Source: Candidatus Cloacimonadales bacterium | GTDB taxonomy: Bacteria; Cloacimonadota; Cloacimonadia; Cloacimonadales; DAONDQ01 | Direction: 5' to 3' | Assembly: GCA_963662275.1 (NCBI GenBank) | Contig: OY759316.1 | Location: 1,824,001-1,888,000 of the forward strand | DNA: 64,000 nt | Shown: positions 16,913 through 60,926 of the stretch, piece by piece | Position numbering within the stretch: the first letter of the stretch is position 1 | Layout of the letters: each line of letters begins with the position of its first letter | Program-made: the position numbers and the translations under genes | The notes under the pieces: model-generated | Databases searched by the model: none | Told to the model about the DNA's origin: nothing | What the model saw: the letters and a program-made list of their open reading frames with translations, nothing else

Positions 16913-16915
16913 TTC

Positions 16916-35289: not shown

Positions 35290-35439
35290 CTATAGTGGAA
35301 GTAACATCAGATGTACAAACTTGTTTCCGTTATCCTGGAGTGTAATTTCTTTCATTGCACTTCCAGCTAAGTCTGTAGTCTGATTCACTTTTATTATAGC
35401 AATTCCTGCAATGCTTCGTTCGTTTTTTGTTGATATTCC
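35290..35439 (-). pseudogene. start-less 3' gene remnant ending at the candidate transposon end
   Basis: open frame GISTKNERSIAGIAIIKVNQTTDLAGSAMKEITLQDNGNKFVHLMLLPL*; upstream it runs into the element and hits TGA at 35464-35466 with no start codon. Confidence 0.45.
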
Positions 35440-35485
35440 TGTTATAAAGAGACACCTATAATTTCAAATAGGGACACTTAAAATT
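35440..35485 (+). mobile_element. candidate left end of a Mu/Tn7-superfamily transposon
   Basis: TGT terminus followed by two 16-bp direct repeats with a 22-bp period (AGAGACACCTATAATT at 35448, AGGGACACTTAAAATT at 35470). Confidence 0.55.
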
Positions 35486-35529
35486 ACCGAGATAACGCTT
35501 TGAGTGGTGGAGAGTTATAGCGGATATGT

Positions 35530-36535
35530 TTTGGACTGTTGCAGATGGACATTTGGACTGTTTTGGCATCATTTAGGACACGAAAACTGCAAATTTGGAC
35601 TGGTTATGGACTGGTTTTGGACTTTGACATTTTTACGTAAAAAAGTGCTATTCTGGAAGCTCGCAATTGGTTTGATTTTACACCGATGAGCAGTTTGTCA
35701 GAAGTCTGAAGTCAGTCTAAATTAGGACGCCGAAAGTCCATAGTAAGAGGTTGTGGGATAATATCTTCCATTCTGTAGCCGATAATCGTATTCTTTGACT
35801 CGCTCCCAGTTTAGAGCCTGTTTTGAACTCTGCATTTCATTCTATTTCACCAACTGATTCAATACATATTACTGCGAATTTCTCTGCTTTTATCGCATAT
35901 TTCAATTTATACTTTATAGGATAGAGCCACCATCTTTTTCGGTGTGCAGATTGTTTCCAGAATGAGCGGAAAGCCCTTCCCAACATATTGCATACAAGGT
36001 AGTTAGCACCCTAACTAAAGTATATGTGAGGTGACTATGAACCCTGTAACGAACAGAAAAAACAAGAACAGAGACTGCCTCGAAAAAAATGTCCATGTGC
36101 TGAAGCGGATGGACACACTTGGACACAAATCATGTCCAAGTGCTTCGAAAGTCTCTCTACGTAAGGCTTCGAGCCAAAATGTCCAAGCGCATCCAAGATT
36201 TATGTCCATGTGCTTCGCAAAATGTCCATCCGCTCCCTTGAACTTGGATGTTTTTATCATGGATGATATGACCAAGTTATTCTGGAAGCAAGGCAAAACT
36301 GGAGGTCAGCATGAGTGCTGATAACCTCGAACCCAAGCAGTCAGTCTTTGACAGTGTCGAAATAACCAGTTACCAATCAGACCATTACATCGTAAGAGAC
36401 AGGATTCTATCCAGACAGCAGATTGTAGGATCGACTGAAAAGAAGCTTTTCCCGATAGAATTAGAAGCCACTAAAACAGCCCAAAAGAAGACTAAAATCG
36501 AGTCGAAGCACTTGGACACGGATGGACATTTTGAA
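35530..36535. repeat. array of TGGAC / TGTCCA(A/T)GTGC motifs upstream of and inside the transposase 5' end
   Basis: six TGGAC in 35531-35622; TGTCCAWGYGC or TGTCCATCCG copies near 36090, 36106(rc), 36116(rc), 36133, 36180, 36203, 36223 and 36503-36533(rc). Confidence 0.7.
36037..36321 (+). CDS. hypothetical small ORF overlapping the transposase start; may be a by-product of the motif array
   Basis: GAGGTG RBS, ATG at 36037, stop overlaps the transposase 5' end. Confidence 0.35.
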   Translation: MNPVTNRKNKNRDCLEKNVHVLKRMDTLGHKSCPSASKVSLRKASSQNVQAHPRFMSMCFAKCPSAPLNLDVFIMDDMTKLFWKQGKTGGQHEC

Positions 36536-38383
36536 AATGAAGATGTAAAGACTGTTTTTATAGATATGGTACCTTCTGAAAAGCTACCTTATACCCATGA
36601 TAAAGAAGCCAGATTATTCGGAGCTTTCTGCTCGGAAGTGTTAAATCGACTCGAATTATGTGACTCCAGAGTAGATGAGTGGAAACATATAGTGGATGGT
36701 TTCAACTCTGGTGGTTTTATGCCAGAGCTTTTCAAAATCAAGGGTAAACGCTCTGAGCGTTGCTTGAGACTGTGGTTAGAAAACTATACCCAGAGCAACT
36801 TTGATATGTATGCTCTTCTGCATAAACGCAAGAATGAGATCAGAGGTCGCAAGGTGACTATTGCCGAACAGAACTACCTGCTGAACTTATTACTCACACC
36901 TAAGCAGGTCAAGATCGGCTCTGCCATTTCACTTTTGAAACGCATGGATGCCCTGAAGCTGGTGGAATCACCCAGCAGCACCAAAACCCTCAAACGCTGG
37001 ATTATCGACTGGAGAGCCAACCATCCAGCTGAGTGGGCGCAAGCTACCAAGGGCAGTAAGTATGTCGCAGAGCATATAGTGAAGTCTATAATGAGAGATG
37101 CCAATCTGCTATCTGTCGGTAATGTCTGGGTAGCGGATGGACATACTCTGGCATTTGATATCTATAACCCGGTAACCGGGAAGACCCAGCGCATGACCCT
37201 GATTTTGATAATCGACTGGGCAAGCAGATATCCGGTGGGTGCTGCTCTGGCAGTTACCGAAGACAGCCAGCACATTTGCGCTGCGTTTAGAAATGGCTTT
37301 CTGAACTGGGGTGCTTTACTTGAGTATGTGTATCTGGATAATGGCAAAGCCTTCCGCTCCAAGCTGTTTAATGAGAAATGGGAAGACCATGACCTCTCGG
37401 TCGAACTGGGTGGCATCTTCCCCAGACTGGGCATCGGAGTATCCTTCGCACAGAAGTATAATGCCAGAAGTAAAATCATCGAACGCTTCTTCTTAACCAT
37501 GCAGGAGCAGTTCGAACGCTTTATCTCCACCTTTAGGGGTGCCTCAGTCGCAGACAAACCTGCTACTCTGATGCGGAACGAAGTCTGGGCTAAGAAGCTG
37601 TATGAAGGCACCGCACCCACAGTGGAAGAGACGATGCAGATGATTACTTTCTATATCCGGCACATTTATGGCGAGACACCGCACTCGGGAATCGGCAACA
37701 GAAAGCCGTATGAAGTATTCAGTCAGGCTGCTCTGCCGGAAGAGAGAATCATCACTGCCGACAAACTCAACTTCCTGATGCTATCCGCAGAACGCAAGCG
37801 GGTCAGGTCGGAAGGCATCAGACTGAATCACATGCTCTACTGGCACGATGCTCTGGTCGACCATATCGGCAAACCTGTCGTGATTAGATACGACCATGCC
37901 GATGCCAGATGGATACTCATCTTCACACAGCAGGATCAGTTCATCTGCCAGGCAGAACTACGAAGAGCGCAACACCCCTTTATCCACTTAGTCAAAGACG
38001 ACCCTATAGCTCATAAAGAACTTAGCCGGGAATATAACCAAATCAAAAAACTCCAACGCAAGACCGAGCAGAAGACCAAGCAAATCGTCAAACAAACGCA
38101 GGAAGCAGTCGACCGCTTAGTCAAACCCATCCCAGTGCAACTGCTGGAGCCTGATGGCAAGCTCTTCAATAAGACACCCATGATAGCTGCACCTATTGAT
38201 AACTTGGATATAGTAGCCTCGCATGTCTATGAGCAGATCGTGCCGAGAGTGGAAGAGCCACCCCGGATTATCACCAACCCATTTCCACAATATGTAGATA
38301 ACAGCCTGGATAATGAAGATGATGAACCGGTCTTAAAGCAAAAGACCTTCGCCGAGATGATGAAGATAGTCGGGATTAAATAA
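36311..38383 (+). CDS. Mu/TnsB-like DDE transposase
   Basis: catalytic triad 'VWVADGH', 'VYLDNGKAF', 'SKIIERFF'; Mu-transposase C-terminal-like 'GIRLNHMLYW...VVIRYD'; GGAGG RBS. Confidence 0.9.
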   Translation: MSADNLEPKQSVFDSVEITSYQSDHYIVRDRILSRQQIVGSTEKKLFPIELEATKTAQKKTKIESKHLDTDGHFENEDVKTVFIDMVPSEKLPYTHDKEARLFGAFCSEVLNRLELCDSRVDEWKHIVDGFNSGGFMPELFKIKGKRSERCLRLWLENYTQSNFDMYALLHKRKNEIRGRKVTIAEQNYLLNLLLTPKQVKIGSAISLLKRMDALKLVESPSSTKTLKRWIIDWRANHPAEWAQATKGSKYVAEHIVKSIMRDANLLSVGNVWVADGHTLAFDIYNPVTGKTQRMTLILIIDWASRYPVGAALAVTEDSQHICAAFRNGFLNWGALLEYVYLDNGKAFRSKLFNEKWEDHDLSVELGGIFPRLGIGVSFAQKYNARSKIIERFFLTMQEQFERFISTFRGASVADKPATLMRNEVWAKKLYEGTAPTVEETMQMITFYIRHIYGETPHSGIGNRKPYEVFSQAALPEERIITADKLNFLMLSAERKRVRSEGIRLNHMLYWHDALVDHIGKPVVIRYDHADARWILIFTQQDQFICQAELRRAQHPFIHLVKDDPIAHKELSREYNQIKKLQRKTEQKTKQIVKQTQEAVDRLVKPIPVQLLEPDGKLFNKTPMIAAPIDNLDIVASHVYEQIVPRVEEPPRIITNPFPQYVDNSLDNEDDEPVLKQKTFAEMMKIVGIK

Positions 38384-38393
38384 GGGAGCAAAC

Positions 38394-39107
38394 ATGTTAC
38401 AAGGAAAATTAGTCAAAACACGCAATGTTCTGGAAGCTGATAACTGCATCCAGTATCTTTTAGAGAGACCCAAGATGGAGATGGTGGGACTGGGACTGAT
38501 CTATGGCAAGCCTGGACTCGGCAAGACCACGTATGCCAGCCGGGTTGCCTTCAGTCGGGGCTATCTGTATCTCAGACTGGAAGCAACCACCACAGCCAAG
38601 TCCTTCGCTGCTGAGCTTCTGCTCGCACTCTATAAACGCTTTAACATGGGAGAGTTCCTGCCCTACGGCACAGCCAACGGACTGTTCAAGAAGTGCCTGG
38701 CTATCCTGGAAGACAATGCTGATACGATTATCGTCATAGATGAGATAGACTATGCCTTCCGGCATCCTCAACTCTTGGGAGCGATTAGGGATATCGTGGA
38801 TGAGACTCTGACTATTGTCCTGCTGGTGGGTATGCAGAATGCCAGAGACCGGCTCCTGCAAATCAATGAGTATTACTTCGATAGATGCAATTACTTCTAT
38901 GAGTTCACTCCTGTGACCCAGAGAGATACCAGACAGCTCTGCAAGGAACTGCTGGAGATACCTTTTGATAACGATGTCTCGGACTTCATCCACTTCCATA
39001 GCAGTGGCAACCTCAGAAAAGCCATGAAGATAATGTATGAGATGGATAACACCATCAAAAAGCATAGCCTGACCAGCATCACTCTCAAGGACATGGAAGC
39101 ACTATGA
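38394..39107 (+). CDS. MuB/TnsC-like AAA+ ATPase
   Basis: Walker A GKPGLGKT, Walker B IIVIDE, 'LVGM', 'GNLR'; directly follows the transposase. Confidence 0.88.
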   Translation: MLQGKLVKTRNVLEADNCIQYLLERPKMEMVGLGLIYGKPGLGKTTYASRVAFSRGYLYLRLEATTTAKSFAAELLLALYKRFNMGEFLPYGTANGLFKKCLAILEDNADTIIVIDEIDYAFRHPQLLGAIRDIVDETLTIVLLVGMQNARDRLLQINEYYFDRCNYFYEFTPVTQRDTRQLCKELLEIPFDNDVSDFIHFHSSGNLRKAMKIMYEMDNTIKKHSLTSITLKDMEAL

Positions 39108-39673
39108 CCGAGACTGAACTGCTCACCAACTTTGTAAACCAGTACAGCAAACCCTTCACAGTGGATACGGCAGCCATGCTGACCGGGATAGCCAAAGATT
39201 CGGTCGCTCCCATCCTGAAAGAACTGGAAAAGCAGAAGCGGATTAATCGCATCTATGAGAAGCCAGAGGTGATTTATGTGCGTAATAACCGCTATAATAC
39301 CAGCCTGTGTGCCACCAATGACAAATGGAACCTTAACCTGTCGCAGGCGAATGAACTGCTCAACCTGCTGGAAAAGGGCAGATATACATCTCTGCGGGAT
39401 ATCGCAACAGAGATCGGCAGAAGCAGACAGTGGGTCTATATCTATCTGGAAGCTCTGGCATCCATCGAGTGCATTGACCTGCGTGGTTATGTGTATGTAG
39501 TCATCTCCCGCAAGAACCTGCCTAAACTCGGCACTAAGGTTACCAAGGGCATCTTGGGTGACTTGAGAAGTCTGAACCGGCTCGGTGGCTACCGGGACTT
39601 AAGAGAAAAACCTAAGAAAACAGATAAACAGAAACGCTCAGACTCAAAGCGAACCTATTTTATGATATTCTAA
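39104..39673 (+). CDS. tandem winged-HTH DNA-binding protein
   Basis: two HTH-like segments 'FTVDTAAMLTGIAKDSVAPILKEL' and 'TSLRDIATEIGRSRQWVYIYLEAL'; ATGA overlap with the ATPase. Confidence 0.65.
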   Translation: MTETELLTNFVNQYSKPFTVDTAAMLTGIAKDSVAPILKELEKQKRINRIYEKPEVIYVRNNRYNTSLCATNDKWNLNLSQANELLNLLEKGRYTSLRDIATEIGRSRQWVYIYLEALASIECIDLRGYVYVVISRKNLPKLGTKVTKGILGDLRSLNRLGGYRDLREKPKKTDKQKRSDSKRTYFMIF

Positions 39674-39883
39674 ATGATCACGAGTTAAGCCATTTCTCAA
39701 CGTCTCATAAGTTTGAGTATTGCGCTTAATGTACATCTATCTAACTATTCACACAATTCATTACTATTAATCGAATCACACATTGGAAAGCTACTCGAGA
39801 AGTTGAACCGTCGCCATCCTAGCAATTTCTTATTGACTTTTCAATAGTATCAGCAGTATTTATTTCAGGAGATAAGATAAGTC

Positions 39884-42351
39884 ATGGATTCAGAAACAAA
39901 TAAAGAAAAACTCAAAGAAGAATTAGCAAAAAATCTTGAAGAGATAAGCGTTCTCAAAGAAACGAACTCCAGTCTTAAGGCTCAACTCGCAGAGTCAGGT
40001 TCACATTACGATTTAGTTTCTGAGTTACAGCTTGCAATTATGATGAAGAAAACGTCATACCTATAGACAGTGACTATATAATAAAGGATGCATCTCATTT
40101 TTATCAGGTAGATAACCAGTCCTACCCAATAGCGAAAGTCGCTTTATTTCGAAGTCTGTTCAAAGGTCGGGAGGATGTTTTTGCTATTCGTTGGTCTGGT
40201 AAAGATGGCAAATCAGGATATTCTCCTGCTTGTTCTAATGACTGGAAAACTGGAGTATGCGGGAAATTTAACAAAACCTCGTGCTCAAATTGTGACAACA
40301 GAGAATTGATACCCATTACTGATGAAGTAATCTTTCGACATCTCAATGGTGATTTCGTCATAGGTGTATATCCTTTAATGCCAGATGATACATGCTATTT
40401 CCTCGCTTTAGATTTTGATAAGAAAGAGTGGCAAACTGATGTATTAGCTTTTCATGAGACTTGCAATGAAATCGGTATTCCCGCTTATATAGAAAGATCA
40501 CGTTCAGGGAAAGGGGCACATGTTTGGATATTCTTTGAGCAATCCATTCCTGCTCGGATAGCAAGAAACTTGGGATGTGCTTTATTGACGGCAACTTTGG
40601 AGAAACGTCATCAGGTTGGATTGGATTCATATGACCGACTGTTTCCCAATCAGGACACAATGCCAAAGGGCGGGTTTGGGAATCTAATCGCTCTCCCGAT
40701 GCAAAAAGATGCTCGAAAACATAGCAATAGCATCTTTGTTAATGGACATTTACAGCCTTATGAAGACCAGTGGGCATTTCTATCAAAAATGATAAAACTC
40801 TCACTGGATAAGGTTAACCAGTTTATTGCATTGTTGACTAAGGAAAACTCACCCATTGGCAGCCTGAGGATTACTACCGATGAAGATACATTGCCTTGGG
40901 AACAAGTATTCAGAAATGAACCTGTGTTTAGTGATCTTCCATCTCAAGTTAATGTGTTCATTAGCAATATGATATTTATAGAGAAGGAAGGCTTACCTCA
41001 GAAACTAATAATCAGTATTATTCGGCTAGCCGCCTTTCTCAATCCCGATTATTACCGAACTCAGGCTTTGCGCCTCCCCTTATACAACAAACCCAGAATC
41101 ATAAATCTGTCAGTAGAAAGCACAAATCATATCGGTATTCCCCGAGGTTGCTTAGATGAACTGGTGAAGCTATTTGAGCAGTTAGAAATAGAGGCGATAA
41201 TACATGACAACACAAATCATGGTATTTCAAAGGATTTTGAGTTTGAGGGAAAGCTATATGATGAACAGTTAAATGCAGGAAAAGAACTGCTCTGTTACAA
41301 CAACGGCATATTATCCGCGTCGACTGCATTTGGCAAAACGGTGGTAGCTCTATGGTTGGTAGCTCAAAGGAAGACAAGCACATTGGTTATAGTTCATCGC
41401 AGGCAACTGCTCCAGCAATGGAAAGAACGCATTGCAAGTTTCTTGAACATTCCAATCAAAGATATTGGAGAGATAGGAGCAGGCAAAGACAAGCGAACTA
41501 TGAAAATCGATGTTGCTATCATTCAAAGCCTTTATCACGACAAAGAAGTGAAAGAATTTGTAAAAGAATACGGCATGGTTATCGTTGATGAGTGCCATCA
41601 TATCTCTGCATTTTCATTTGAACAGGTTCTCAAAGATGTTAAAGCTAAGTATGTCTATGGGCTTACTGCTACTCCAGTTAGAAAAGATGGTCAGCATCCT
41701 ATAGTCATTATGCAGTGCGGATCTATCAGAGTGAAGATTGATGCACGTAATCAGGCAAATTCCAGAGCTTTCAGTCATTCAGTAATCGTCAGGCATACAA
41801 CATTTCGATTGCCAGATAGTCTGGCTCGTATTGAACCTAAAATTACCGATATCTATCAGGCTTTAGTGGATGATAAAGAGCGAAATGATTTAATCATAGA
41901 TGATATTATAGCAGCGATTGAAGCTGGCAGAAGCCCTTTGATTCTCACTGAACGCATTGCTCATGTGGACTTCTTCATGGAGAAGCTGACAGGTTTTGCG
42001 AAAAACATCATTGTCCTCAAAGGTGGTATGGGCAGAAAGCAACTCAATGCAGTCATGGATAGACTTCACTCAATACCGGAGAATGAGGAAAGAGTGATTA
42101 TCGCCACCGGTAAATACATCGGTGAAGGCTTTGATGATAACAGACTGGATACTCTGTTTCTAACAATGCCAATCTCCTGGAAGGGCACTCTTCAACAATA
42201 TGCAGGCAGACTGAACAGAGTAAATGATTCAAAGACTGAGGTCATCATCTATGATTATGTGGATCGTGAAGTCCCGGTTTTGGCTGCAATGTATGCAAAA
42301 CGAGTCAAAGGCTATGCTTCGATAGGATACAGTATCACTGATAAGCAATGA
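39884..42351 (+). pseudogene. TOTE-type archaeo-eukaryotic primase plus SF2 helicase fusion, -1 frameshift between 40024 and 40066
   Basis: AEP motifs 'ALDFD', 'RSRSGKGAHVW', 'GNLIALP'; helicase 'STAFGKT', DECH, TAT, 'QYAGR'; conserved-looking 'KVALFRSLFKGREDVFA.RW...C..C' lies upstream of the TTG at 40306 in a frame with no start; coiled-coil N-terminus in ORF 39884-40066. Confidence 0.8.
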
Positions 42352-45300
42352 TCAATCAGCAGTCGACAAATATCTGCAGCCTATACCTGTAATAATACTA
42401 ACTCCACCTGCCTGTGGGATTACTTGGATTTGATTTGTGATACGTTCTTTGATTGCTGGAACATGTGATATGATGCCAATTAATTTCCCTTCATTGTTTA
42501 ATGCGGCAAGATTTTCCAGAGCTATTTCTAAGCTGTCTTCATCCAATGAACCAAATCCTTCATCCAAAAACAGAGAGTCGATCCTTACTTTCTGGCTGGA
42601 CATCGCTGATAAGCCGAGAGCAAGGGATAAGCTGACAATGAAGCTTTCGCCACCTGATAAATTCTTGATAGTTCGAATCTCTCCGCCTTGGTAATTGTCT
42701 ATAATATTCAGTTCCAAGGAATCACTTTCACTATTAATTAGAAGGTAGCGATCAGATAGTTTTTGTAGTTGAGCATTGGCATGAGCTATGAGCATTTCAA
42801 AAGTAATGCCCTGAACAAAACCGCGGTACTTCTTGCCATCAGCAGAGCCAATCAAATCGTTTAGCATTTCCCAACGGGTAAGCTGCGATTTTTGCAGGTT
42901 AATTTGGTGATATTGCTCAGCTTGTGCGGTTTTTTGTTTATTATCTTCTTTCAGTTGCGCCTCGATGGTGCCACTTTCACGGTTTAATTGACTCATTTGT
43001 TCCAAAAGGGTTGCGGAGTAACTTTTAAGCTCATGCATTTCGCTTGTGGTAAGCTGCCTGGCGGTTTCAGTTTGTAGCTTTGTGTTGTTGTCATCGATCA
43101 GGGATTGAAGCCTGTTCTTCTCCTGATTAAGTTGTTCATCTCTATGGTTTAGCTCTTCAAATGTTTTCAGCGGCAGGATGGCTGCTTCAAAATCCTGAAG
43201 CGTAGTAAAGCCAGTTTGGGTAATGGCAGTTATAAATCCTGCACTGCTTAGCGTGTGCTGCTTCGTTGTTTCGCTAAATTGCTTCTCGGTTTTTTGCATG
43301 TTTTCCATTGCTCCTTGCAGATCAGAAGTGCTGGTTCCAAGCTTTAATTGCAGAGAGTTCAGAGTGGATTTTTGTTTGTTTAACCGCGTTATCCAGTTTT
43401 GTTCTTCGCTTTGCACATCTTTATCACCAAAGAGCTGTTGCCTCAGTCCAACTTTATCTTTTATTTGGGCTTGCATTGCCTCTATCTTCTGCAATATAGT
43501 TGCTGTCTGGTTGAGGTGATCTTGTGCTGTGGATTGCTTGGTTAACAATATTGTTTTCTTCTGGTTTAGCTCTGCTTGAAGCAATGCTTCATTATCTTTG
43601 TGCTTCTTCCAGTGATCCCTGGCAGTTTCCAGCATGGAAATAAGAGCTTTAGGTTTATCCAGATCAACCAGTTTCACATTCTGGGTATTGAGTTTGTTTG
43701 CTATGATTTGCTTTTCGGCAAAGATTTTGTCTCCCAAGTTGTTAACGGACTCAAAGCACCGATTATACTCCTCAGTAATGGCTTGCATTTCATATTCGAG
43801 ACCGAGCTTTGCTTGCTGCAATGTAGAAAGGCTTTGTTTTTTCTGATTATGCTCCCGCTCCAACGCTATGATTTCTTTGCTTAGCTTTTCTCCTTTGGCG
43901 ATGATTGCAGCCAGTTTTTGATTTTCTGTGCGATTTGTGGAAATAAGTTTTTCAATCTTAAAAGCAGAAAGCTCGCTCAGGGATAGCTTGAGTTGTGCAC
44001 ATAAGGTTACCAGGCTCTGCCGATTCATGGTATCTTTCGTTTCATGATCCTGCAATAGTTGTTTTTGGAACTGCAGCCTTGTGCGAGTTTCTGTATGATT
44101 ATGTTCCTTGGCTTTCAGTTCCATCTGGAGCTTATTGTAAATGATGTTAAGTTCTTGCATGTCTTCAGCAAGAATATTCGGCACTGACGTTCCAGTATCG
44201 GCATAGGGATGATGCAGTGCTCCACAGAGGGGGCAGGCTTCATTGTCTTTCAGCAGCTTGCGTTCATCTTCCAGATTCACTTTTTTCTGTGAGAGTACTA
44301 ATATGGCGTTTTTATCCTCGAGGCTTTGCTCGGTGGATGCCAATTCTTTATTAAGCACAGTGATTTCACCGTCAAGCTGTATAATAAGTGCATTATCTGT
44401 GCTTATCTGTTTATTCGTAATACTTATAGCGCTTTGGCTTGAGGTATGGGCATTGTATAGGTTTTGCAGTTCAATGAGCTTATTGGCATAGTCGCTAATT
44501 TCTTGCAGATTATTGCGATAGTACGTGATATCATGTTCACATAATAGATCTTCCAGGGATGCTGTTAGGTCATTTTTGCTGATTTGAGTGACAGAGAGAG
44601 CGCTCTGCATGGCTTCCATCTGTAGGATAGTATTCTGTAGTTCGGTTGCCTTGGCTTTATTATCAGCAGCTATAAGTTTGATCTTGGCTTTGCCCTGCTC
44701 CTTTTCCATATCTACTAAGCGCTGGAATTGGTCTAAAAGCAGCGGAAGAGAGCCCTCAAGCTCTGCGTCCTGTGCGTGTTTTTCCTGATAATCGTGCACG
44801 GCTTTAAGATTTTGTTCTGCAGTATTTATTTCAGCTTCGAGACCACTGATTTCTGTGGCAATACCTTGGTATTTGGTTTCTAAATCCCTCTTATCGTCCT
44901 GCAGGGTTAAAAGGGCACTTTGTTGGGTCTGGATCAGAGTGTCCAATTCTCTTACCTGAAGGAAAATCTTCTGATTAGTGGTATCTTGCAATTCTGCTGC
45001 ATTTACCAGTTCTTGTTGCTGTTGTAACTCGAGGGTAACAGACCTGGTAAGGATTTCCAATGTGGTAGTCTTTTCTTGGTATCCCTCAAAATCAGACTTA
45101 AGCTCTTCAAGACGCTTAGCAAGAGATTTTACATTACTGTGCTCCCCCAAAAGAGGCTGAGTTTTACGGGCATTTTCCAGATGTAAACGCTGGGGGGCGA
45201 AATCCTTGATCTGATCCTGCAGTGCGCATAGATTTGTCTTGCTCTCGCTAATCTCTTGGTTTAGACGCAGCAAATTTTCTTTCCAGGAGATCAGAGCATT

Positions 45301-46029
45301 GGCTTCCTCGATGTTTTGTTTCAAGCCCTTTTCTTGTGCGCCTAATTCCATCAGCCTGGCTTGCAGTTCACCGCATTCATCCTGGCTCAATACCTGATAG
45401 GCATTCACCAGTCCCAGTAATCTGCTAAGTAATTCCCGCTCGTGATTCCTGCGTTGAAACACTTCTACCGAAATTTTACTATATATATCTGTACCTGTGA
45501 TTTGCTCCAGAATGGTTGCACGCTCATTAATATCAGCTTTCAAGAAAACATCAAAACCACCTTGCGCCAAGAGCATGGAGCGGGTAAAACGCTTGAAATC
45601 CATGCCGGTGACTTCTTCTACCTTATCCTTCACAGTGACAATTGTACTGGCTATGATAGTAATTTCTTCTGCAACCAATGCAATTTCATGGCTGGGGTTT
45701 TGCAACTTTCCATCTACTTTGTTTCGAGCCTTTTTTTGACTCCAATGGCATAAATAGCTTCCTTGACTTGTCTCAAACTGAACTTCTGCAAAACAACTTG
45801 CCGTCTTGCGAGACATTATATCGTTTCCTGATTGATTTACTCGTTTCAGACGCGGTGTCTCTGCATAAAGGGCAAGACAAATTGCATCCAATATAGTAGA
45901 TTTACCAGCTCCAGTAGGTCCGATTATTGCAAATATTCCATTATTGACAAAGCTGGTATTAGTAAAATCTATCTCCCATTCTCCCTCCAAGGAATTCAAG
46001 TTTTGAAATCTCAGCTTTTGTATTCTCAT
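42352..46029 (-). CDS. sbcC: SbcC/Rad50-like SMC ATPase
   Basis: 'GPTGAGKSTILDAICLALY', long coiled coil with zinc hook CPLCG, 'LSGGE', 'LFLDEGFGSLD'. Confidence 0.95.
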   Translation of the reverse strand: MRIQKLRFQNLNSLEGEWEIDFTNTSFVNNGIFAIIGPTGAGKSTILDAICLALYAETPRLKRVNQSGNDIMSRKTASCFAEVQFETSQGSYLCHWSQKKARNKVDGKLQNPSHEIALVAEEITIIASTIVTVKDKVEEVTGMDFKRFTRSMLLAQGGFDVFLKADINERATILEQITGTDIYSKISVEVFQRRNHERELLSRLLGLVNAYQVLSQDECGELQARLMELGAQEKGLKQNIEEANALISWKENLLRLNQEISESKTNLCALQDQIKDFAPQRLHLENARKTQPLLGEHSNVKSLAKRLEELKSDFEGYQEKTTTLEILTRSVTLELQQQQELVNAAELQDTTNQKIFLQVRELDTLIQTQQSALLTLQDDKRDLETKYQGIATEISGLEAEINTAEQNLKAVHDYQEKHAQDAELEGSLPLLLDQFQRLVDMEKEQGKAKIKLIAADNKAKATELQNTILQMEAMQSALSVTQISKNDLTASLEDLLCEHDITYYRNNLQEISDYANKLIELQNLYNAHTSSQSAISITNKQISTDNALIIQLDGEITVLNKELASTEQSLEDKNAILVLSQKKVNLEDERKLLKDNEACPLCGALHHPYADTGTSVPNILAEDMQELNIIYNKLQMELKAKEHNHTETRTRLQFQKQLLQDHETKDTMNRQSLVTLCAQLKLSLSELSAFKIEKLISTNRTENQKLAAIIAKGEKLSKEIIALEREHNQKKQSLSTLQQAKLGLEYEMQAITEEYNRCFESVNNLGDKIFAEKQIIANKLNTQNVKLVDLDKPKALISMLETARDHWKKHKDNEALLQAELNQKKTILLTKQSTAQDHLNQTATILQKIEAMQAQIKDKVGLRQQLFGDKDVQSEEQNWITRLNKQKSTLNSLQLKLGTSTSDLQGAMENMQKTEKQFSETTKQHTLSSAGFITAITQTGFTTLQDFEAAILPLKTFEELNHRDEQLNQEKNRLQSLIDDNNTKLQTETARQLTTSEMHELKSYSATLLEQMSQLNRESGTIEAQLKEDNKQKTAQAEQYHQINLQKSQLTRWEMLNDLIGSADGKKYRGFVQGITFEMLIAHANAQLQKLSDRYLLINSESDSLELNIIDNYQGGEIRTIKNLSGGESFIVSLSLALGLSAMSSQKVRIDSLFLDEGFGSLDEDSLEIALENLAALNNEGKLIGIISHVPAIKERITNQIQVIPQAGGVSIITGIGCRYLSTAD

Positions 46030-47264
46030 TTTGCTTCCTCCGCGTTGGGATCACTCTCTGATAGCATTTGCATAATTTCGTTATAGCAGTTTCGCAGTTC
46101 TAATGATTGAGGTTCATCAATCCCATGCTTTTGAAGGCAGCGTTCAAAAACTTGAATCGTACTGAGATCATCCAAACTCTCATTCAAAGCAGTAGCTGAA
46201 AGTGCCCTACGCATTATACGTTCATTTTTCAAACGTAAAAGCTCAACATCAGTACCAGAAATAATAGACTCAATATCTTCTTTGAGAGATGGTAGAATTT
46301 CATCGCCTGTATAGTAGACTTCAATCCAACATGGTTCACCTTGTTCAACAATCAAATTTAGCTCACTTAAAATTGCGTCCCAGTTACCTTCTATGCTCAA
46401 AAGTCTATTATTCTGTGGGATAGTAATCGGATTGACTGTGGTTTGGGTATCAGAAATATCAATAATTAGCACCTGTTTTTCGTGATCAGCTTCCTTAAAA
46501 CTTAGAGGAAGAGGTGAACCGCTATAACGCAGATTATCCCTACCTTTGATTATTTGCTGTGAATGCAAATGCCCCAATGCGACATAATTGATCTCTGCGG
46601 GGAAAAGGTCTGCCGGAACATACAACAGATTTCCAATATATAGCTCTCTGACTGCTTCCCCTTCTTGTAAGCAGCCTCCAGAAGCAAAGAGATGCCCCAA
46701 TGCAACGATCGGTGGATGGTTTTTGTCTTTTGCTTGAACATCAAACGCTATACTAAAGACATCTTGATAATGTTTAGTGATCCCTGCAAGTAACTTCTGT
46801 TCTTTTTGCTCAATGGATTCATAGGCTTCTATACTACGGATATCGCGTTCTCGGAGGTATGGTACCGCACAAACAATCAAAACACATTTGCCTTCTGCAT
46901 TCTTTATCAGCAAAACCTCATCCGAGGGATTTTCAGTCTTACTTCCTACAACGTGAATTCCCAAGTGCTTAAGCAACCCGCCAGGGGCATTTAAAAAAGT
47001 GGGAGAATCGTGATTGCCACCGATTATGACAATATTTTGACAAGAAGTTTGTTTCATCTGCCACAAGAACTCGTAATACAACTCTTGAGCCCTGCTTCCC
47101 GGCAACGCAGAATCAAACACATCACCAGATACCAAGAGCACTTCTATTTGCTCAGTATTAATTGTGCTAATTAACCAAGATAAGAACTCCCGCTGTTCTG
47201 CATAGCGTTTGTGTCCCATCAAACTGATACCCAGATGCCAATCAGATGTATGTAGAATTCTCAT
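46026..47264 (-). CDS. sbcD: SbcD/Mre11-like nuclease
   Basis: 'ILHTSDWHLG', 'GDVFD', 'GNHDS', 'ALGHLH'; ATGA overlap with sbcC. Confidence 0.95.
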   Translation of the reverse strand: MRILHTSDWHLGISLMGHKRYAEQREFLSWLISTINTEQIEVLLVSGDVFDSALPGSRAQELYYEFLWQMKQTSCQNIVIIGGNHDSPTFLNAPGGLLKHLGIHVVGSKTENPSDEVLLIKNAEGKCVLIVCAVPYLRERDIRSIEAYESIEQKEQKLLAGITKHYQDVFSIAFDVQAKDKNHPPIVALGHLFASGGCLQEGEAVRELYIGNLLYVPADLFPAEINYVALGHLHSQQIIKGRDNLRYSGSPLPLSFKEADHEKQVLIIDISDTQTTVNPITIPQNNRLLSIEGNWDAILSELNLIVEQGEPCWIEVYYTGDEILPSLKEDIESIISGTDVELLRLKNERIMRRALSATALNESLDDLSTIQVFERCLQKHGIDEPQSLELRNCYNEIMQMLSESDPNAEEAK

Positions 47265-47394: not shown

Positions 47395-49509
47395 CTAATT
47401 GACATCCAGACATAGTTTAACAGCCAGTTCCTTACTAATCTCTACTGGAGTACTGTTTTTCAGTCTTTTTAATATTGCTTCGATAGATTTATCTTTCAGC
47501 CAGTATTGTAGATACTCGTGAAGTTGCATCTCAAGTGGAAGCATCATTTGAAATATGGATTGTGCAGTGGTCTTATCAAACAATTTATGGAAGATATCTT
47601 CGTATTCTAAAGGATTATCAGGGAGTGACGCCCATGATAGCGGAGAACTTATGGTCATCGATATGTCATCAGTTTCAAATTCAAAATGACCTGCTTCCAA
47701 TGCTATTGCTCTATTGACTATCTTACCACCAAAAGTGTAATAACGGATACTACCCAGGGATTTTACATATGGGATCGACATCAAGTTTATTGTGTCATGG
47801 GCAACTTTCCGTAATGCATCAAAATAGGAGCAAAGTTTTGGTTCTATAAACTTAAAACAATCAGAATCTGAGTTTAGCATTCTCCAGGTGCGGTCGACAA
47901 TAAATGGGTCAATACAAATTTTGCCACCTGGATACATAAAATCGATTGGATTTCTTCTATTTTCAGTAGGATCAAGTGTTATGGAATCCGGAGAAATTTT
48001 CTTTACGATCCAATATTTACCATGAAAGCGAACAACACTACCCTTATGCAACTTAATTAAGTTAATCTCTGGTACTTCTCCCAGATTCTTAGCCCCATGC
48101 TGAATCCTAATGGATTTTGATCCTAAGCTGAAGTTTCCATAGATCATCCGTAAGTCAACAAGCTGGAACAGTTTCTCGTAAGCCGCATACTTGTATTTAT
48201 AATCGTGTTTAAGGACATACTCTTTATCAGCCAATTCAGAAAGAAGAGAGTCAAGTTTAGGTCTATCAAGATAAGAAATATAACGCACAAGATCATTTAA
48301 ATCAGCAACTTTTACAAATTTTCCTTCATTTGCAGCAATGATACTTAAACACTGTTGTGTTAAAGCACCATACAATTCATAAGGTGTCCTTTGGGAAACC
48401 TCTCCATTAATAGAGCAATCGGTTAAAACACAGAACTTTAAAACATCTATCATTAGCTTCTTACTTGTATCAGGAATCAGGCATATGACATTTACTTTGT
48501 TGGACCTTCTGTTTCCTCTCCCAATTCTTTGCATAAATGCTTCAACACTACTTGGAACATCCCAAACTATTACTGCATCTATATCTCCAATATCAATACC
48601 TAATTCTAGGGTACTTGTCGCAATGCATATCGCTGAGTTTAAAGACGCAAATTTCTCTTCAGTCTCGATGCGAACTTGTTGAGATAAAGATGAATAATGC
48701 ACTAACAATCTTTGTGACAGCATCGTTGATTGACTCAAGCATGAGGCAAGACGCTCACATTCTTTTCTGGAGTCGGCAAAGACCAACAGCTTCAGATTAT
48801 TGCCCATCATGAGCCTTTCAATTAACTGCCGGAACTCTGACAAGTGCCTAACATGTCTTATTTGACAATCAATCATTCTTTCAGATGGGTAGTTAAAGAA
48901 ATCTGCTTTTTCCGTAGAACCCATCAAAAAGTCGCGGACACAAGACACATCACCAATTGTTGCAGAAAGTGCGGCCCATTGAATTGGCTGACCTACTAAA
49001 CCCATTAAACGGTGTAGAAGAATCGATAACTGCAACCCACGTTGCGTATTGTATAGTATATGAACCTCATCCAAGATGATAGCTTTTACAGTTTGAATAC
49101 ACTTTTCTTTTCTAAAGAGAAGAACGTCGAGTGATTCTGGAGTAGTTATCAGGATATGTGGTTTTTGGCAAAGGACAAGATCATCTCGATCTCCGTGCCT
49201 AATGCCAACCTTGAGACCAAGGGAAGCGAGAGGAATTGATAATCGTTTTTCAAGGTCATTGACCAGGGCTTTTGTAGGCGAAATGTAAATCAGAAACAAC
49301 TCATTGTTTGTGATTGCATCAATCCAGAACCTACTTACAATAGGGGCAACTACTGCTTCAGTTTTCCCTGAGCCTGTCCCTGAAGTTAGCACTATATTCC
49401 TCCCAGTCACTAACGGTTCTATCACCGCTTCTTGAGAAATACGTATTGAACAAAAACTGCCGTAAAAAGCAGTTGCTACTCTTTTGTCTAACAGATCTAC
49501 TGATCTCAC
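47395..49509 (-). CDS. Lhr-like DEAD/DEAH helicase (BrxHI/SngC-like)
   Basis: 'SGTGSGKTEA', 'SPTKALVND', 'TTPESLD', DEVH, LSAT, 'TSTLELGIDIG', 'QRIGRGNR'; GTG start overlaps the upstream TGA. Confidence 0.88.
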   Translation of the reverse strand: MRSVDLLDKRVATAFYGSFCSIRISQEAVIEPLVTGRNIVLTSGTGSGKTEAVVAPIVSRFWIDAITNNELFLIYISPTKALVNDLEKRLSIPLASLGLKVGIRHGDRDDLVLCQKPHILITTPESLDVLLFRKEKCIQTVKAIILDEVHILYNTQRGLQLSILLHRLMGLVGQPIQWAALSATIGDVSCVRDFLMGSTEKADFFNYPSERMIDCQIRHVRHLSEFRQLIERLMMGNNLKLLVFADSRKECERLASCLSQSTMLSQRLLVHYSSLSQQVRIETEEKFASLNSAICIATSTLELGIDIGDIDAVIVWDVPSSVEAFMQRIGRGNRRSNKVNVICLIPDTSKKLMIDVLKFCVLTDCSINGEVSQRTPYELYGALTQQCLSIIAANEGKFVKVADLNDLVRYISYLDRPKLDSLLSELADKEYVLKHDYKYKYAAYEKLFQLVDLRMIYGNFSLGSKSIRIQHGAKNLGEVPEINLIKLHKGSVVRFHGKYWIVKKISPDSITLDPTENRRNPIDFMYPGGKICIDPFIVDRTWRMLNSDSDCFKFIEPKLCSYFDALRKVAHDTINLMSIPYVKSLGSIRYYTFGGKIVNRAIALEAGHFEFETDDISMTISSPLSWASLPDNPLEYEDIFHKLFDKTTAQSIFQMMLPLEMQLHEYLQYWLKDKSIEAILKRLKNSTPVEISKELAVKLCLDVN

Positions 49510-50693
49510 ATTGATTCCTGAAACAGATCGTCGAGAGCTTCCACAACTTTTATGATTACATTTCTGACCCTATCCTGAATTTGAACAGCAGCAGCTTTTC
49601 TAACAACCGATTTGAGCTGTGAATCCAACATTATGGTATCAGGTTCCCAATCATATGCAATACCATGTACATCAAAGATTAATAGTGATAGCTCCTCAAG
49701 TTCAATTGTTTGCAATGGACTCATTTCATAAATAGGTAGTTTATCGAATCTAGCGTAATCAAAATCCCACCTTTCCTTCCTCAGTAGAACGCCTTTGCAC
49801 TTTTCAGCAAATTCAGGTGTCACGGCATAGAAAGTTTTTCCAGGGAATAATTTCCCTGAATAAAAATGGAAAAGATTCCAAAAAGCAGTTTCTTGAAATC
49901 TAATATTCCTAAGGTTTGTGATAACATCTTCAAACTCGTCAAAAAGAACAATGAATCCACTTAGCCCAGACTGTTTGCACAAAGTATTAATATCTCTAAG
50001 GATTGCCCAACTCTGTTCATGCCCGTTTTTGTTCATCACAAAAACGTCATCATCGTAGAATTTCCAATCCGGTCTGGGGTCTCTGAAATAAATCCGCAAA
50101 TCAGTGACCAAAGTCTTAAATAGTATTCTTCTCTGACTATTATAAGCTGATGGTTGGTAAAACCAATCCATTATTGTTTCTTGAACTGATTCAATTCCTG
50201 TTGCCCAAGCTCTTATTGCTACATACATTGCCTTAGAATCAAGTACTTCAGAATAATCCCATTTACCATTATTGCACAAATTTTTAAAGTACTCATTATC
50301 AGCTAGTCCTTGATTAATTTTCTTCGTGAACAAATCAAATAAAAGTGATAGTCCCTTATAGTTTTGTAATCCTGGTATTTGGATATTGCGGCATACAGCA
50401 CCAAGAATCTGATCCATACGATTAAATCGGACTGCTGAGTTAGCATCTAAAGTAACAGAACTTACAGCATAGTTCTTTTCTAAGGCTTCTTCTCGAATGA
50501 ATTTCAATAAATGTGTTTTCCCTGAGCCATAGTTTGCCTTTAATAAAAGAACTGTACCGTTGTGTGTATTTAGTCTCTCTGAAAGATCATTAATCTCATG
50601 TTTGCGTCCTACAGTAAAATGCCTTACAAATCCTTCCGGAGGGATACCATTACGAAGCGATTCGATAATAATCTGTGCTTGTTGGGTATTCAT
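49506..50693 (-). CDS. DUF2791/BrxD-like P-loop ATPase (second copy)
   Basis: 'IIESLRNGIPP..FTVGR', Walker A 'ANYGSGKTH', Walker B 'IVLFDE'. Confidence 0.82.
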   Translation of the reverse strand: MNTQQAQIIIESLRNGIPPEGFVRHFTVGRKHEINDLSERLNTHNGTVLLLKANYGSGKTHLLKFIREEALEKNYAVSSVTLDANSAVRFNRMDQILGAVCRNIQIPGLQNYKGLSLLFDLFTKKINQGLADNEYFKNLCNNGKWDYSEVLDSKAMYVAIRAWATGIESVQETIMDWFYQPSAYNSQRRILFKTLVTDLRIYFRDPRPDWKFYDDDVFVMNKNGHEQSWAILRDINTLCKQSGLSGFIVLFDEFEDVITNLRNIRFQETAFWNLFHFYSGKLFPGKTFYAVTPEFAEKCKGVLLRKERWDFDYARFDKLPIYEMSPLQTIELEELSLLIFDVHGIAYDWEPDTIMLDSQLKSVVRKAAAVQIQDRVRNVIIKVVEALDDLFQESM

Positions 50694-50698
50694 ATCAC

Positions 50699-51967
50699 CT
50701 ACTCGTTTCTTAAACGCTCCATAACATCGTCGTAGAGCTTTTCTGTGGGTCTAACTTCTCCCTCGAGATGATCATCAAAATCAGCTATCATGGAAGAAAC
50801 CAATAATCTCCAAAACCTGATACCTGCTAAATGAGAATGTTGCTGGAATAAATCAAGGACACGTTTTTCGACAGCAGTATCCTCAGGTAGTAAGTCAGAA
50901 GCTTCAGGGAATGCACTTATGTATATTTTTTTTATTTTAATTGCTGCCTCTTGATAGTCTTTTAGCTCAGTTTGTACAGCATCAAGATTCCATATCGTAT
51001 CCAAGGCTCTTGGATATCTATTGTCGTCTGGCTTTCCTATTCTTCCAGATAATGCTCCATATATCACAATTCCAAACTTAGGATCTGAGTAAAAGTCAGG
51101 GGTCGTCGCATATATCAAAAACAAACCAGGAAGAGATTCAATGTTGTTTATTAATGATAATAGATTGTTATGAGCTTCTCTCAATACTGATTGACGCATT
51201 ACTGAATAAGCTTGCTCAGCTTCATCAAATAGGATCAATAATCCCTTGTAACCTGATAATCTGACAAATCCTGCCAATGATTGTAGCATGATCTTAGCAT
51301 TATCTTTTGTAATCAATTTACTAACACCAAATTGCTTTCTATATACTCCAATACTCCCTTCTCCACAAAACCATTGCAGTATTTCACCACGAGCTTGTTC
51401 CACAATGGATTCATCTGGAGCTTCAGGTAAGAACGTTTCCCAATACTTCTTAACCATTTTCTTAAAATCGATATCAATACTATGATCAGCCATTAACTTT
51501 TCAGTTGCCTTTTGGTAGTTATCATAGGATATATTGCTTTCTGTGGAGTGTACTCCTGTCGATAGCCAAGCTAATGATTCTCGAATTACTGTTCCGAATG
51601 GAGCAATTTCATTTATACAGTTACCGGCATAGTACGATGGAGTTGCTACCATCCTTACTATTGCTGCAAAGACACTTTGGAATTTATTTAGAGCTGCGCT
51701 ACTCTTTTCAAGTTCTACATTTGAGACTAGGCAGTTGTTCTGCAAAGCAAGTTCCCTCAACTGGCGGAAAAAATGTGTTTTTCCAGAACCCCAAGAACCA
51801 CTAACAAATCTGATAATGCCATGATTTGACATACCGGAAAAATGGAATCGTTTGATTCCATCCATAATTTTCTCATTACCCACTGAGTATAAATCAACGC
51901 CTTTTTGCGGAGGAATTCCGGTACGTAATGATTCAACTACCTGGGATGCAATATTCTGATTACTCAT
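50699..51967 (-). CDS. DUF2791/BrxD-like P-loop ATPase (first copy)
   Basis: 'VVESLRTGIPP', Walker A 'GSWGSGKTHF', 'GYKGLLILFDEAE', 'ATTPDFY', 'ALSGRI'. Confidence 0.85.
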   Translation of the reverse strand: MSNQNIASQVVESLRTGIPPQKGVDLYSVGNEKIMDGIKRFHFSGMSNHGIIRFVSGSWGSGKTHFFRQLRELALQNNCLVSNVELEKSSAALNKFQSVFAAIVRMVATPSYYAGNCINEIAPFGTVIRESLAWLSTGVHSTESNISYDNYQKATEKLMADHSIDIDFKKMVKKYWETFLPEAPDESIVEQARGEILQWFCGEGSIGVYRKQFGVSKLITKDNAKIMLQSLAGFVRLSGYKGLLILFDEAEQAYSVMRQSVLREAHNNLLSLINNIESLPGLFLIYATTPDFYSDPKFGIVIYGALSGRIGKPDDNRYPRALDTIWNLDAVQTELKDYQEAAIKIKKIYISAFPEASDLLPEDTAVEKRVLDLFQQHSHLAGIRFWRLLVSSMIADFDDHLEGEVRPTEKLYDDVMERLRNE

Positions 51968-52791
51968 AGTTTCTCCTTAAAAATCATAAAACCAATATAT
52001 CCCCGAGCGGCTGCACCACTTAAAAGGATGCCTTGGTTTGTATCTTTTGTTTGTTGCAAATCAATAGCACGACCATCTATTTCAAAAGGACCCTTTTCAG
52101 CTAAGTATGACAGATCAGTAATGAACTCATCCATACGAAATCCCTTGTCTTTCTTTCTTAGAAGCTTGGTTATATCTTTGATTGGTACACTCGAACCATC
52201 CGGCAAGTGTTCTTTATTTATAATGTACTTATAGTTAGCCCGTAATTGTTTGAGAAAATTACTGCCATGAAATCTTCTGCCAAAAACACGAGTATATTCC
52301 TTTCGGATGATTTCAACAACAGCTTCAATATCTGCAGGTATTTCTGCTAATTTACCTTCATTGTCAATAAGTCTCGCCATGCGTTTAGTTTCGAGTATTT
52401 CCAGTCGAAAAAAACCATTTTTGATACCGTATTTAGGATGAGGGCTGTTCACATCCAACAAAATTCTGGATGATTTACACGCTTCATCAAGTAGCGACGG
52501 ATAACGCCTAAATATCCTATCCGCATCTTCTTTCGCAAGTCGGTATGCCTCTTCTAAATAATTCAGTTCAAGAGGTTTATCCAACCGCATCTTTTTTAGT
52601 CGTTCTGCTTCACGATCAGCCAATGTTAAGAAGTGCATTGACCACCCCTTAGACAGACAATCTAACAAATCGGTGAATAACCGCTCTCTTTTAAAGGTCT
52701 CCTCAGTTTCAGCTTTTAGCTTTTGGTATTGTTCACTTAAACTATTCTTAAGCTGTCGTACTGAGTTAATAATGTCATTATTAAACTCCAT
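51964..52791 (-). CDS. hypothetical protein (coiled-coil N-terminus), first gene of the ATPase-ATPase-helicase module
   Basis: 275 aa; overlaps the brxL stop by 11 nt and the next gene by ATGA; no family recognised. Confidence 0.7.
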   Translation of the reverse strand: MEFNNDIINSVRQLKNSLSEQYQKLKAETEETFKRERLFTDLLDCLSKGWSMHFLTLADREAERLKKMRLDKPLELNYLEEAYRLAKEDADRIFRRYPSLLDEACKSSRILLDVNSPHPKYGIKNGFFRLEILETKRMARLIDNEGKLAEIPADIEAVVEIIRKEYTRVFGRRFHGSNFLKQLRANYKYIINKEHLPDGSSVPIKDITKLLRKKDKGFRMDEFITDLSYLAEKGPFEIDGRAIDLQQTKDTNQGILLSGAAARGYIGFMIFKEKL

Positions 52792-54868: not shown

Positions 54869-54881
54869 GTTTACCCCTTGA

Positions 54882-57377: not shown

Positions 57378-57385
57378 TTTAGTTC

Positions 57386-60300: not shown

Positions 60301-60913
60301 AGTATTGATACAGCCAGCCAATGACTTCGACATCTTTGCAATTGTCTTGAGTCATAGCTTCGCAGATAATAGTCAGAATGGAATTACTACTCAGCAGGTC
60401 ATCCGGCATCAATAGCTCTGTCCAGTCCGCTATCCTTTCAAAGAGGAAAGGCATTATTAGGGCATAGTAGTTACAGGAAGCCATGATCAGGATACGGTAA
60501 GCTTCACTTTGAGGGTCTTCATGTTTTGCTGTTCCAGAAAGTAAATCATACACTTTTTGTTGGTTATCTTTGGTAACCATATCTTCATCGATATGACCCA
60601 TTTTAGCTTCTGCCAGTATCTCGGGCTGAGATTGACCCGGCAGAGGAGATAAAATACCTATCCGGGTATAACGGTTTACATCCATAAAACGCAAGGCACA
60701 GAAGCGGTTGAACCATGTATAGGCGACCTTGTCGATTAAGAGGTCTTTACTCTTAAGCCTTTTAAGCTCTTCTTCTAATGCCAGAACTTGTTTGGAATTG
60801 CGCCTTCTTTCATCACTCCCATCTGCCAATACTTTATCCAGCTTGATTCTAACCTGCTCCAGCAGATAACGACGTGCATACTTAGCAAAGCGTTCGAGTT
60901 TTGATGTATCCAT
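57386..60913 (-). CDS. pglX: BREX-1 adenine methyltransferase PglX
   Basis: 'VAYTWFNRFCALRFM', 'ATQIFTPHWIV', 'DPCSGSGH', 'TNPPY', 'YKKRPIYW', 'DLDDGVKVNY'. Confidence 0.94.
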   Translation of the reverse strand: MDTSKLERFAKYARRYLLEQVRIKLDKVLADGSDERRRNSKQVLALEEELKRLKSKDLLIDKVAYTWFNRFCALRFMDVNRYTRIGILSPLPGQSQPEILAEAKMGHIDEDMVTKDNQQKVYDLLSGTAKHEDPQSEAYRILIMASCNYYALIMPFLFERIADWTELLMPDDLLSSNSILTIICEAMTQDNCKDVEVIGWLYQYYISEKKDEVFKDLSKNIKIKSEDIPSATQIFTPHWIVRFMVENSLGRLWILNHANSSLSENMRYYIKAEQSETAYHKINTPQEIRFCDPCSGSGHVLTYAFDLLYAMYEEDGFNLVEIPQLIIKNNLFGIEIDERAGELAAFALTMKARAKDKLWFNRKIEPNICVLASVSIAEDELDKYMRKIGYDVFSAKLETTLKQFTETNTYGSLIVPADTNVVETYNMLIDNNEIVNDTEYYGTHKAVVKILRQADYLNSKYHIVVTNPPYMGSKGMNNTLSDFAKTNYPLAKSDLFAMFIQRCLELVLDRGFCALVTMQSWMFLSSYEKLRSHLLDNYTIECMVHMDNMVMGIAFGTSATVWQKFLNPNFKGSYSYLSCQDLDENNTPKEFPVKNSRLAVASSSDFINIPGTPIAYWVSERVRSIYANSDKVSDIANVVCGMTTGDNDQFLRLWFEVSHAKTGFGYTCKNDAILSKNKWFPYNKGGSFRKWFGNNEYVINWGNDGYDVITNGRAFARSQNFYYKESITWSFVSSSYFGVRVSDPGFLFDMGGCSAFLKKADYQLVLSAYLCSKLVFNFLKILNPTLNFQVGNVGSLPWLESKIIVNKRNIDHLSNLLLNVSKQDWDSFETSWNFTRSPLLMMLNLDQMSVKEVYFDLRKQWIDNTIEMHCLEEENNGIFIEAYGLQNEFSPDVPLKEITLTCNPYYRYSKEANQEFKEEFPLNEKLEADLLSDTMKEYISYALGCMLGRYSIDKPGLILANQGETIDDYLKQVPNPSFIPDKDNVIPILDGEWFTDDIVERFKEFLKVTFGYSNFSQNLQFIEEAIGKDLRSYFLKDFYNDHIKRYKKRPIYWLFSSPKDSFNALIYMHRYTPDTASIILNDYLREFVVKLNAKKADLEHQIISSSTCQRDKIIAGKELEKITATILELENWERNVIFNLAAAKIEIDLDDGVKVNYAKFGTALKKIPGLDKSEE

Positions 60914-60926
60914 ATTTTCTGCCCCT

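Follow-up and report, generated by a model that had tools for sequence, protein, structure and literature searches.

We analyzed a 64,000-nucleotide stretch of DNA (hereafter the window) from Candidatus Cloacimonadales bacterium (assembly GCA_963662275.1, contig OY759316.1, positions 1,824,001 to 1,888,000, forward strand), which holds a plus-strand module of three genes, A, B and H, inside a 32-kb element. Gene A (36311..38383) encodes an intact Mu-type DDE transposase of 690 residues, identified by Pfam (Mu-transpos_C, E 5e-18; rve, 7e-6) and PHROG (phrog_310 transposase, 6e-74), with a catalytic triad of D276, D343 and E391 placed by DDE-type motifs. A profile of the A family matches Villandry A (6e-28) and MuA (2e-7), with no match to B3 A. 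Gene B (38394..39107) encodes a MuB-like AAA+ ATPase of 237 residues with intact Walker A and B motifs (Pfam AAA_22, 3e-13; phrog_296 DNA transposition protein, 6e-23; 93% against MuB by hhalign). B begins at the ATPase domain and is without the N-terminal helix-turn-helix (HTH) of MuB; MuB, B3 TnpB and Villandry B have approximately 90-145 residues ahead of this domain, and MuB is described as carrying an HTH in that part (PMC11292022). Gene H (39104..39673), whose reading frame overlaps that of B by 4 nt, encodes a 189-residue tandem winged-helix protein conserved as the third gene in prophages and phage-less elements alike, as seen from a structure model and its homologs. Both A and B are nearer to transposable-phage proteins than to TnsB. 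The IstB family of Pfam gave no match for B, which together with the Mu-type A and the prophage relatives places the element outside IS21.

The module has a guanine-cytosine (GC) content of 0.472, against 0.372 in the left flank and 0.393 in the cargo, a value reached by only 0.3% of equal-sized segments of the genome. No TnsA, TniQ or Cas family matched the scanned proteins of the element; terminase, portal, head, tail, lysis and repressor genes were not found in its 32 kb, where searches with prophage marker proteins matched only A, B, H and a small excisionase-like HTH protein. A first-pass annotation had proposed coupled transposase, ATPase and double-HTH genes, richer in GC than their flanks, free of TnsA, TniQ, Cas and phage genes and followed by defense rather than virion genes. 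Open reading frames (ORFs), family matches, the H model and the protein scans bear out this description, and the element itself turns out to contain the defense genes, most of them on the minus strand.

The element spans 32,168 bp, from 35443 to 3.6 kb beyond the window end, and has inverted ends: a 42-base stretch at 35444 is matched, inverted, 3.6 kb past the window. It is flanked by a 5-bp target-site duplication, CCTGT, at 35438..35442 (plus strand), with a second copy directly after the right end at genome positions 1,891,611-615. The left end (35443..35625, plus strand) begins TATAAAG and carries GACAC repeats at 35450, 35472 and 35576 that resemble transposase sites and are putative binding sites; prophages and phage-less elements alike retain this block up to approximately 35620. 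The right end carries five inverted GACAC repeats, its last base being genome position 1,891,610 (window-equivalent 67,610). Mismatch-free contigs assembled from runs of two studies, one of them possibly the source, cross both the left junction and the junction between H and the cargo. No joints were seen in the sequencing runs, where a 14-kb reference could not reveal a 32-kb empty site.

Clusters of TGGAC/GTCCA repeats, the densest in the genome, occupy 35532..36527 (35532-35622, 35736, 36091-36228 and 36513-36527) and are operator- or enhancer-like. A CI-like repressor, present here in most relatives, is missing from this copy. The leader repeats persist after repressor loss, which leaves A or H to bind them; partial rank correlations favor domain 2 of H as the binder (0.26), a weak signal from pairs that are not independent. 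The core of the ends covaries with A residues 181-262 (0.49, subject to the same reservations). A promoter scan returned one site, fewer than expected by chance. Where relatives have a Ner-like HTH gene, this copy has a 96-residue ORF (36031..36321, plus strand) with no family match, which is probably a decayed remnant of that gene. In six loci inspected by hand (window 36031-36321, L001, L003, G004b, G023a and G089a) the Ner-like ORF overlaps the A start with the same frame offset; a frameshift fusion of the two, restoring an N-terminal HTH to A, is possible.

The cargo begins with a TOTE primase-helicase gene (39824..42351, plus strand). Its 5' part (from 39884) and the remainder are in different frames, in contrast to the 820-residue gene of the related element G095. 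Then follow, on the minus strand, SbcC and SbcD (42352..47264; 45433-47265 is 98.4% identical to the cargo of G095b), a BrxHI-like helicase with two BrxD-like ATPases and a 275-residue protein without match (47395..52791), and a type I-like bacteriophage exclusion (BREX) system of BrxL, PglZ, PglX, an inserted YhcG nuclease and BrxC (52781..64000). The part past the window holds BrxB, BrxA and a 66-residue HTH protein, besides the right end and a leftover 3' tip, in inverted orientation, from a different H gene. The cargo from 39824 to window-equivalent 67,166 is collinear with that of G095a but inverted, while both ends keep their orientation; close to the right end, and likewise in reverse orientation, are approximately 80 bases that resemble the 3' end of the G095a H. 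The copy's own H is whole, and its end resembles that of its closest relatives. Judging from the inverted cargo order, the inverted H tip beside the right end and the whole resident H, this copy is a chimera of its own A-B-H and cargo taken, inverted, from a G095-like element, the end sequence of which was found in the same sequencing runs. Its right terminus reads ..TT instead of ..TA, and given this alteration this copy may no longer move.

Prophage and phage-less relatives in Cloacimonadota

Relatives of A occur in 91 of the 232 genomes of the phylum. Loci were taken from 150 of 264 A matches, plus three further loci; 78 were picked for strong score and flank, and 3 were dropped (two duplicates and one partial A). 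The remaining 75 comprise 43 with phage genes after B, 29 without, and 3 at contig edges, such that 29 of the 72 classifiable loci are free of phage genes. Seventeen of the phage-less loci have a repressor followed by A-B-H, nine (this copy included) have only A-B-H, and three are cut on the upstream side. H is the next gene after B in all 29 phage-less loci and in 42 of the 43 prophage loci. Searching viral contigs with H as anchor gave 133 relatives; among the 80 kept, 74 have B upstream and phage genes downstream, and the other six are cut upstream of H at the contig edge. One relative with phage genes, G004b, is a complete prophage of 33.7 kb; it has terminase, Mu F, lysozyme, portal, protease-head and tape measure genes and a central cargo block. 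In the whole prophages G004a/b, G114a/c, G117a/c and G089a, 9-11 kb of exchangeable cargo lies between the Mu F and lysozyme genes and contains restriction-modification (R-M) genes, BREX parts or secreted surface proteins. A label of 'gemA' for the ORF after H in prophages had no support from Pfam, PHROG or BLAST, and marks position only.

On the A tree, the distribution of phage and phage-less loci requires 9 changes. A single phage-less clade was rejected (36 of the 75 rows, fast search, 2,000 replicates), and several phage-less clades are well supported, one of them with 16 rows (quick tree, Shimodaira-Hasegawa-like approximate likelihood-ratio test only). Such change counts give no direction; it is the shared, syntenic phage genes that suggest repeated loss. 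One prophage, G041c, is placed inside a phage-less clade. The phage-less clades are deep, with synonymous distances of up to approximately 1, and their A, B and H are under purifying selection. Near-identical phage-less elements occupy different sites within one genome, each with its own duplication (G095a/b and G007a/b). The transposase of phage-less G117b is identical to that of prophage G117a, indicating a recent deletion. Prophages and phage-less elements share a genome in G023, G041, G044, G056, G089 and G117.

Termini were located with an end profile seeded with 16 ends picked by eye, leaving the first two bases unscored; two off-position matches were dropped. The 57 left ends so found begin TA (48), TG (8) or TT (1). 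Both ends with identical 5-bp flanks were recovered for 17 of 41 loci tried (13 phage-less elements and 4 prophages), and the 13 closed phage-less elements each lie at a different site. The 34 ends of these 17 read TA (25), TG (7), TT (1) and AA (1); the AA belongs to the right end of the present copy. Most ends are thus TA rather than the TG...CA of Mu-type termini, TG being described as the rule for Mu, Tn7 and IS3 (PMC10201428; PMC3562280).

Target pentamers favor a pyrimidine at position 2 and a purine at position 4 (44 of 57 each), a bias resembling the target preference of Mu. Beyond the duplication, the 57 left flanks show no positional signal, the largest column holding 0.17 bits (shuffles: mean 0.15, 99th percentile 0.24). 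Only two homologous pairs were found among 52 neighbor ORFs, flank homologies comprise only palindromic repeats and one tandem case, and no conserved attachment site was found among the flanks compared. There is thus no shared target site, and targeting is broad across the family. Palindromes stand beside some ends, and hairpin targeting was considered and rejected (8 of 74 flanks versus 8 of 85 control spacers, p 0.8). The left end is preceded, at a distance of 5-8 bases, by a right end of the same family in G114b (L059/L060) and G117b (L045), as in a tandem insertion or cointegrate. A minimal unit, G070a (L114), comprises 4,043 bp with both ends and only A, B and H; its matching five bases lie 85 bp past the right end.

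Cargo was surveyed with 69 proteins from ten phage-less elements, many of which match PADLOC models for BREX, Ssp, R-M, Hma, DRT and other systems; the R-M systems of phage-less relatives are of types I and III. Phage-less G008b (L120, L152) carries as cargo an extended series of small, repeated genes of stress type, which look Ter/vWA-like by eye, and G095b (L039) has a 543-residue host-type dehydrogenase gene inside its right end.

The third gene, H

The H model has two winged-helix domains, at residues approximately 3-60 and 79-133, with a mean predicted local distance difference test (pLDDT) score of 81. Sequence searches gave loose HTH matches only, fold searches gave generic tandem winged-helix matches with no specific structural relative, and its Atlas neighbors are Cloacimonadota clusters and loose HTH leads. 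One search found 358 relatives, and all organism-named ones among the 120 matches listed are from Cloacimonadota; a profile search found 225. H had no match to the TniQ/TnsD Pfam families at E 0.1, its model has no zinc finger, and no TniQ stands among the PDB matches listed. Its profile reached E 0.7 against B3 Mor and nothing against Mu GemA, Ner and Gam, and there was no Pfam Mor match, such that H is not recognizable as a member of either the TniQ or the Mor family. The idea that H is the split C-terminal part of a B3-type TnpB found no sequence similarity. Some other proteins (P0139, P0158, P0172 and similar) consist of the first winged-helix domain of H repeated 3-9 times in tandem.

H is whole in 28 of the 29 phage-less loci. 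For five phage-less clades its mean pairwise ratio of non-synonymous to synonymous substitution rates (dN/dS) lies at 0.09-0.15, and for three prophage clades at 0.22-0.29; the pairs are not independent. Because H is kept whole under purifying selection in elements that have lost the phage genes, it probably serves transposition or its control. A model of the B2-ATP-H complex scored 0.44, against 0.00 for the best of three controls, with contacts agreeing at at least 40% and a partner pLDDT of at least 77. This pass is weak by calibration, since passes at or below 0.60 comprise 18 of 157 solved complexes and both passing mismatches (2 of 215), and the job, which used its own alignments and a ligand, falls outside that calibration. 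The likeliest role, put forward tentatively, is that H is a DNA-binding partner of B that replaces the N-terminal HTH absent from B. Somewhat less favored is an autoregulator bound to the leader repeats, and both roles together were also considered.

Proposed mode of movement, known systems and competing explanations

These data suggest that the element very probably descends from a family of Mu-like prophages in Cloacimonadota and is now an autonomous transposon without phage genes, in effect a natural mini-Mu with defense cargo. This rests on the genes, ends, 5-bp duplication and cargo observed here, on an A-B-H core common to prophages, and on several separate phage-less lineages at unrelated sites. 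By analogy with Mu, A would bind the repeats at both ends, nick the 3' ends (mostly ..TA) and join them to the target with a 5-bp stagger; in the lack of TnsA, the move would be replicative or nick-and-paste. B would coat target DNA with little sequence choice, and H, the least certain part, would be a needed third subunit. The undescribed transposon family with defense islands envisaged in the first-pass annotation therefore holds as regards a bounded transposon with defense cargo, but not as a family separate from Mu-like phages, given the position of H after B in nearly all prophage loci and viral contigs. Its alternative, a Mu-prophage remnant, was right about Mu-like descent and wrong as an alternative, as these are prophage derivatives that continued to transpose.

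The element shares with phage Mu and Mu-type prophages (c-ner-A-B) a MuA-family DDE transposase directly followed by a MuB-like AAA+ ATPase, repeated end sites and a 5-bp duplication with broad targeting, and its relatives keep a repressor, a Ner-like gene, terminase, Mu F and portal. It differs from Mu in its absence of virion, lysis and repressor genes, in a B without the N-terminal HTH of MuB, in having a tandem winged-helix protein where Mu has kil as the third gene, and in a family whose ends are mostly TA. Engineered mini-Mu likewise retains ends and transposition genes without particle genes (PMC3145075), whereas the Cloacimonadota elements have a natural and repeated origin, with cargo of 10-30 kb. 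Transposable prophages of Leptospira are reported to have TA-TA ends in 28 of 74 complete prophages, so TA ends are not unprecedented, and to be without Mor/C; they differ in their B3-type organization and 6-bp duplication, and are whole prophages rather than cargo transposons (PMC8705779). CasMu-I and CasMu-V are described as transposons with MuA and MuB, CasMu-I being a non-phage Mu transposon that also has an HTH gene (PMC10910872; PMC11656645). In contrast, no Cas effector system was found among the cargo matches of the element and no array was seen, though no dedicated array tool was used. Tn7-like and Tn5053-like cargo transposons resemble it in arrays of end sites, an ATPase and defense cargo including BREX (PMC8649781; PMC10293859), but TniQ/TnsD is given as defining the Tn7 clade (PMC10293859), and scans of the element found no TnsA, TniQ/TnsD, resolvase or att site. 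For the Tn5053/Tn552 resolvase this covers the element proteins scanned, and a res site was not searched for. The element thus works like Mu and descends from Mu-type prophages, yet is no prophage and fails the tests for Tn7. A literature search, with subscription journals and supplements outside its scope, found no description of these elements; supplements to the CasMu and TnsC-tree studies could hold these proteins.

Several observations pull against the mini-Mu interpretation. Activity is inferred from copies at many sites, with no movement observed, and the element has the same depth as its host in both well-covered sequencing runs. No closing duplication was found for 24 of the 41 loci tried, mostly for too little DNA, but in G042a, G070a and G117b a cluster resembling a right end has no duplication next to it. 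Exchange of A between elements can, on the tree, also scatter the phage and phage-less labels. The cargo is not always defense: 6 of the 8 cargo proteins surveyed from the two small G007 elements have no PADLOC match, as do several from large elements. As for H, one phage-less locus (G185a) has only half of the gene, its retention could partly reflect coupling to B, and 4 of 43 prophage loci encode it as a fusion with DUF3164, a phage protein, as would suit a phage role.

In an unlikely alternative, H takes no part in transposition and is solely a phage transcription factor that does the work of Mor/C as an activator of middle or late genes; its overlap with B would then explain why it is retained. 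Its standing as a core gene of the prophages, its fusion to DUF3164 in some of them and the lack of any Mor match among the prophage genes scanned would fit. However, selection on H is undiminished or even stronger once the phage genes are gone, independent deletions end after H in 28 of the 29 loci, and H has no similarity to Mor. Slightly less probable still is that the element is a dead prophage remnant, in which a defense island replaced the phage genes in place and A-B-H has not yet decayed. Prophage descent is clear, the deletion in G117b is recent, and this copy has no repressor, an off-consensus right terminus, inverted cargo and one cargo gene out of frame; but the deep phage-less clades under purifying selection and the near-identical pairs at different sites already contradict this explanation for the family as a whole. 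It is highly improbable that the element is Tn7-like with H as a sequence-specific selector in place of TniQ/TnsD, a possibility to which its tnsB-tnsC-tniQ-like gene order, the selected DNA-binding fold of H and the weak B-H contact model would lend themselves, as the flanks hold no positional signal, homologous neighbors or hairpin excess, A and B resemble transposable-phage proteins more than TnsB, and H is equally present in prophages. The earlier proposal of H as target selector is accordingly not supported by any shared site, neighbor gene or flanking motif; as a core gene of prophages that is neither TniQ nor Mor, in a family with no shared target site, H is very unlikely to be a site-specific target selector.

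The mini-Mu interpretation would place the passage from transposable phage to cargo transposon several times within one phylum, a transition that, between Mu and Tn7-like elements, has mostly been a matter of assumption. These elements also constitute a new hot spot for finding defense systems. The 4-kb minimal A-B-H unit of G070a, with TA-ended substrates, would allow tests of how Mu-type transposases read termini, and is a possible integration tool for Cloacimonadota, for which we know of none.

Size range, possible packaging and other features

The closed phage-less elements fall into two groups, 4 at 9.8-12.3 kb and 9 at 25.1-34.7 kb, while closed prophages measure 33.7-34.9 kb. No closed phage-less element exceeds prophage length, with 37-54 kb of downstream DNA covered for most. 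This ceiling hints at packaging by a helper phage, and the first 200 bases, a block where a packaging signal would lie, are conserved in prophages and phage-less elements; since 5 of the 9 large elements come from one clade, it is a lead and not a result. It is conceivable, if on balance doubtful, that the phage-less elements are transposable-phage satellites, which would move within genomes by their own machine of A, B and an obligate H standing in for the HTH of MuB, pass from cell to cell in the heads of co-resident Mu-like phages and spread defense islands; the genomes shared by prophages and phage-less elements would fit this. Were this true, they would form a satellite class that integrates by transposition; the parts covered of a review of helper-dependent elements make no mention of transposable-phage satellites (PMC11389934).

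A second, distant Mu-like prophage, and possible helper, was observed in this genome (L005:5440-12470; genome approximately 1,523,000-1,560,000). It has a repressor, an A of 784 residues, a B with 27% identity to the present B, a 190-residue HTH gene after B, DUF3164, a terminase on the opposite strand and tail-like genes.

Elsewhere in the window, two tandem FG-GAP surface-protein genes (27589-31267) belong to a family with many copies in the genome, a relative of which is cargo in prophage G114a. A second defense-like cluster (7032-17365) comprises a PLD-SNF2 helicase and an Eco57I-type methylase, followed by small HTH genes that are repeated elsewhere in the genome.

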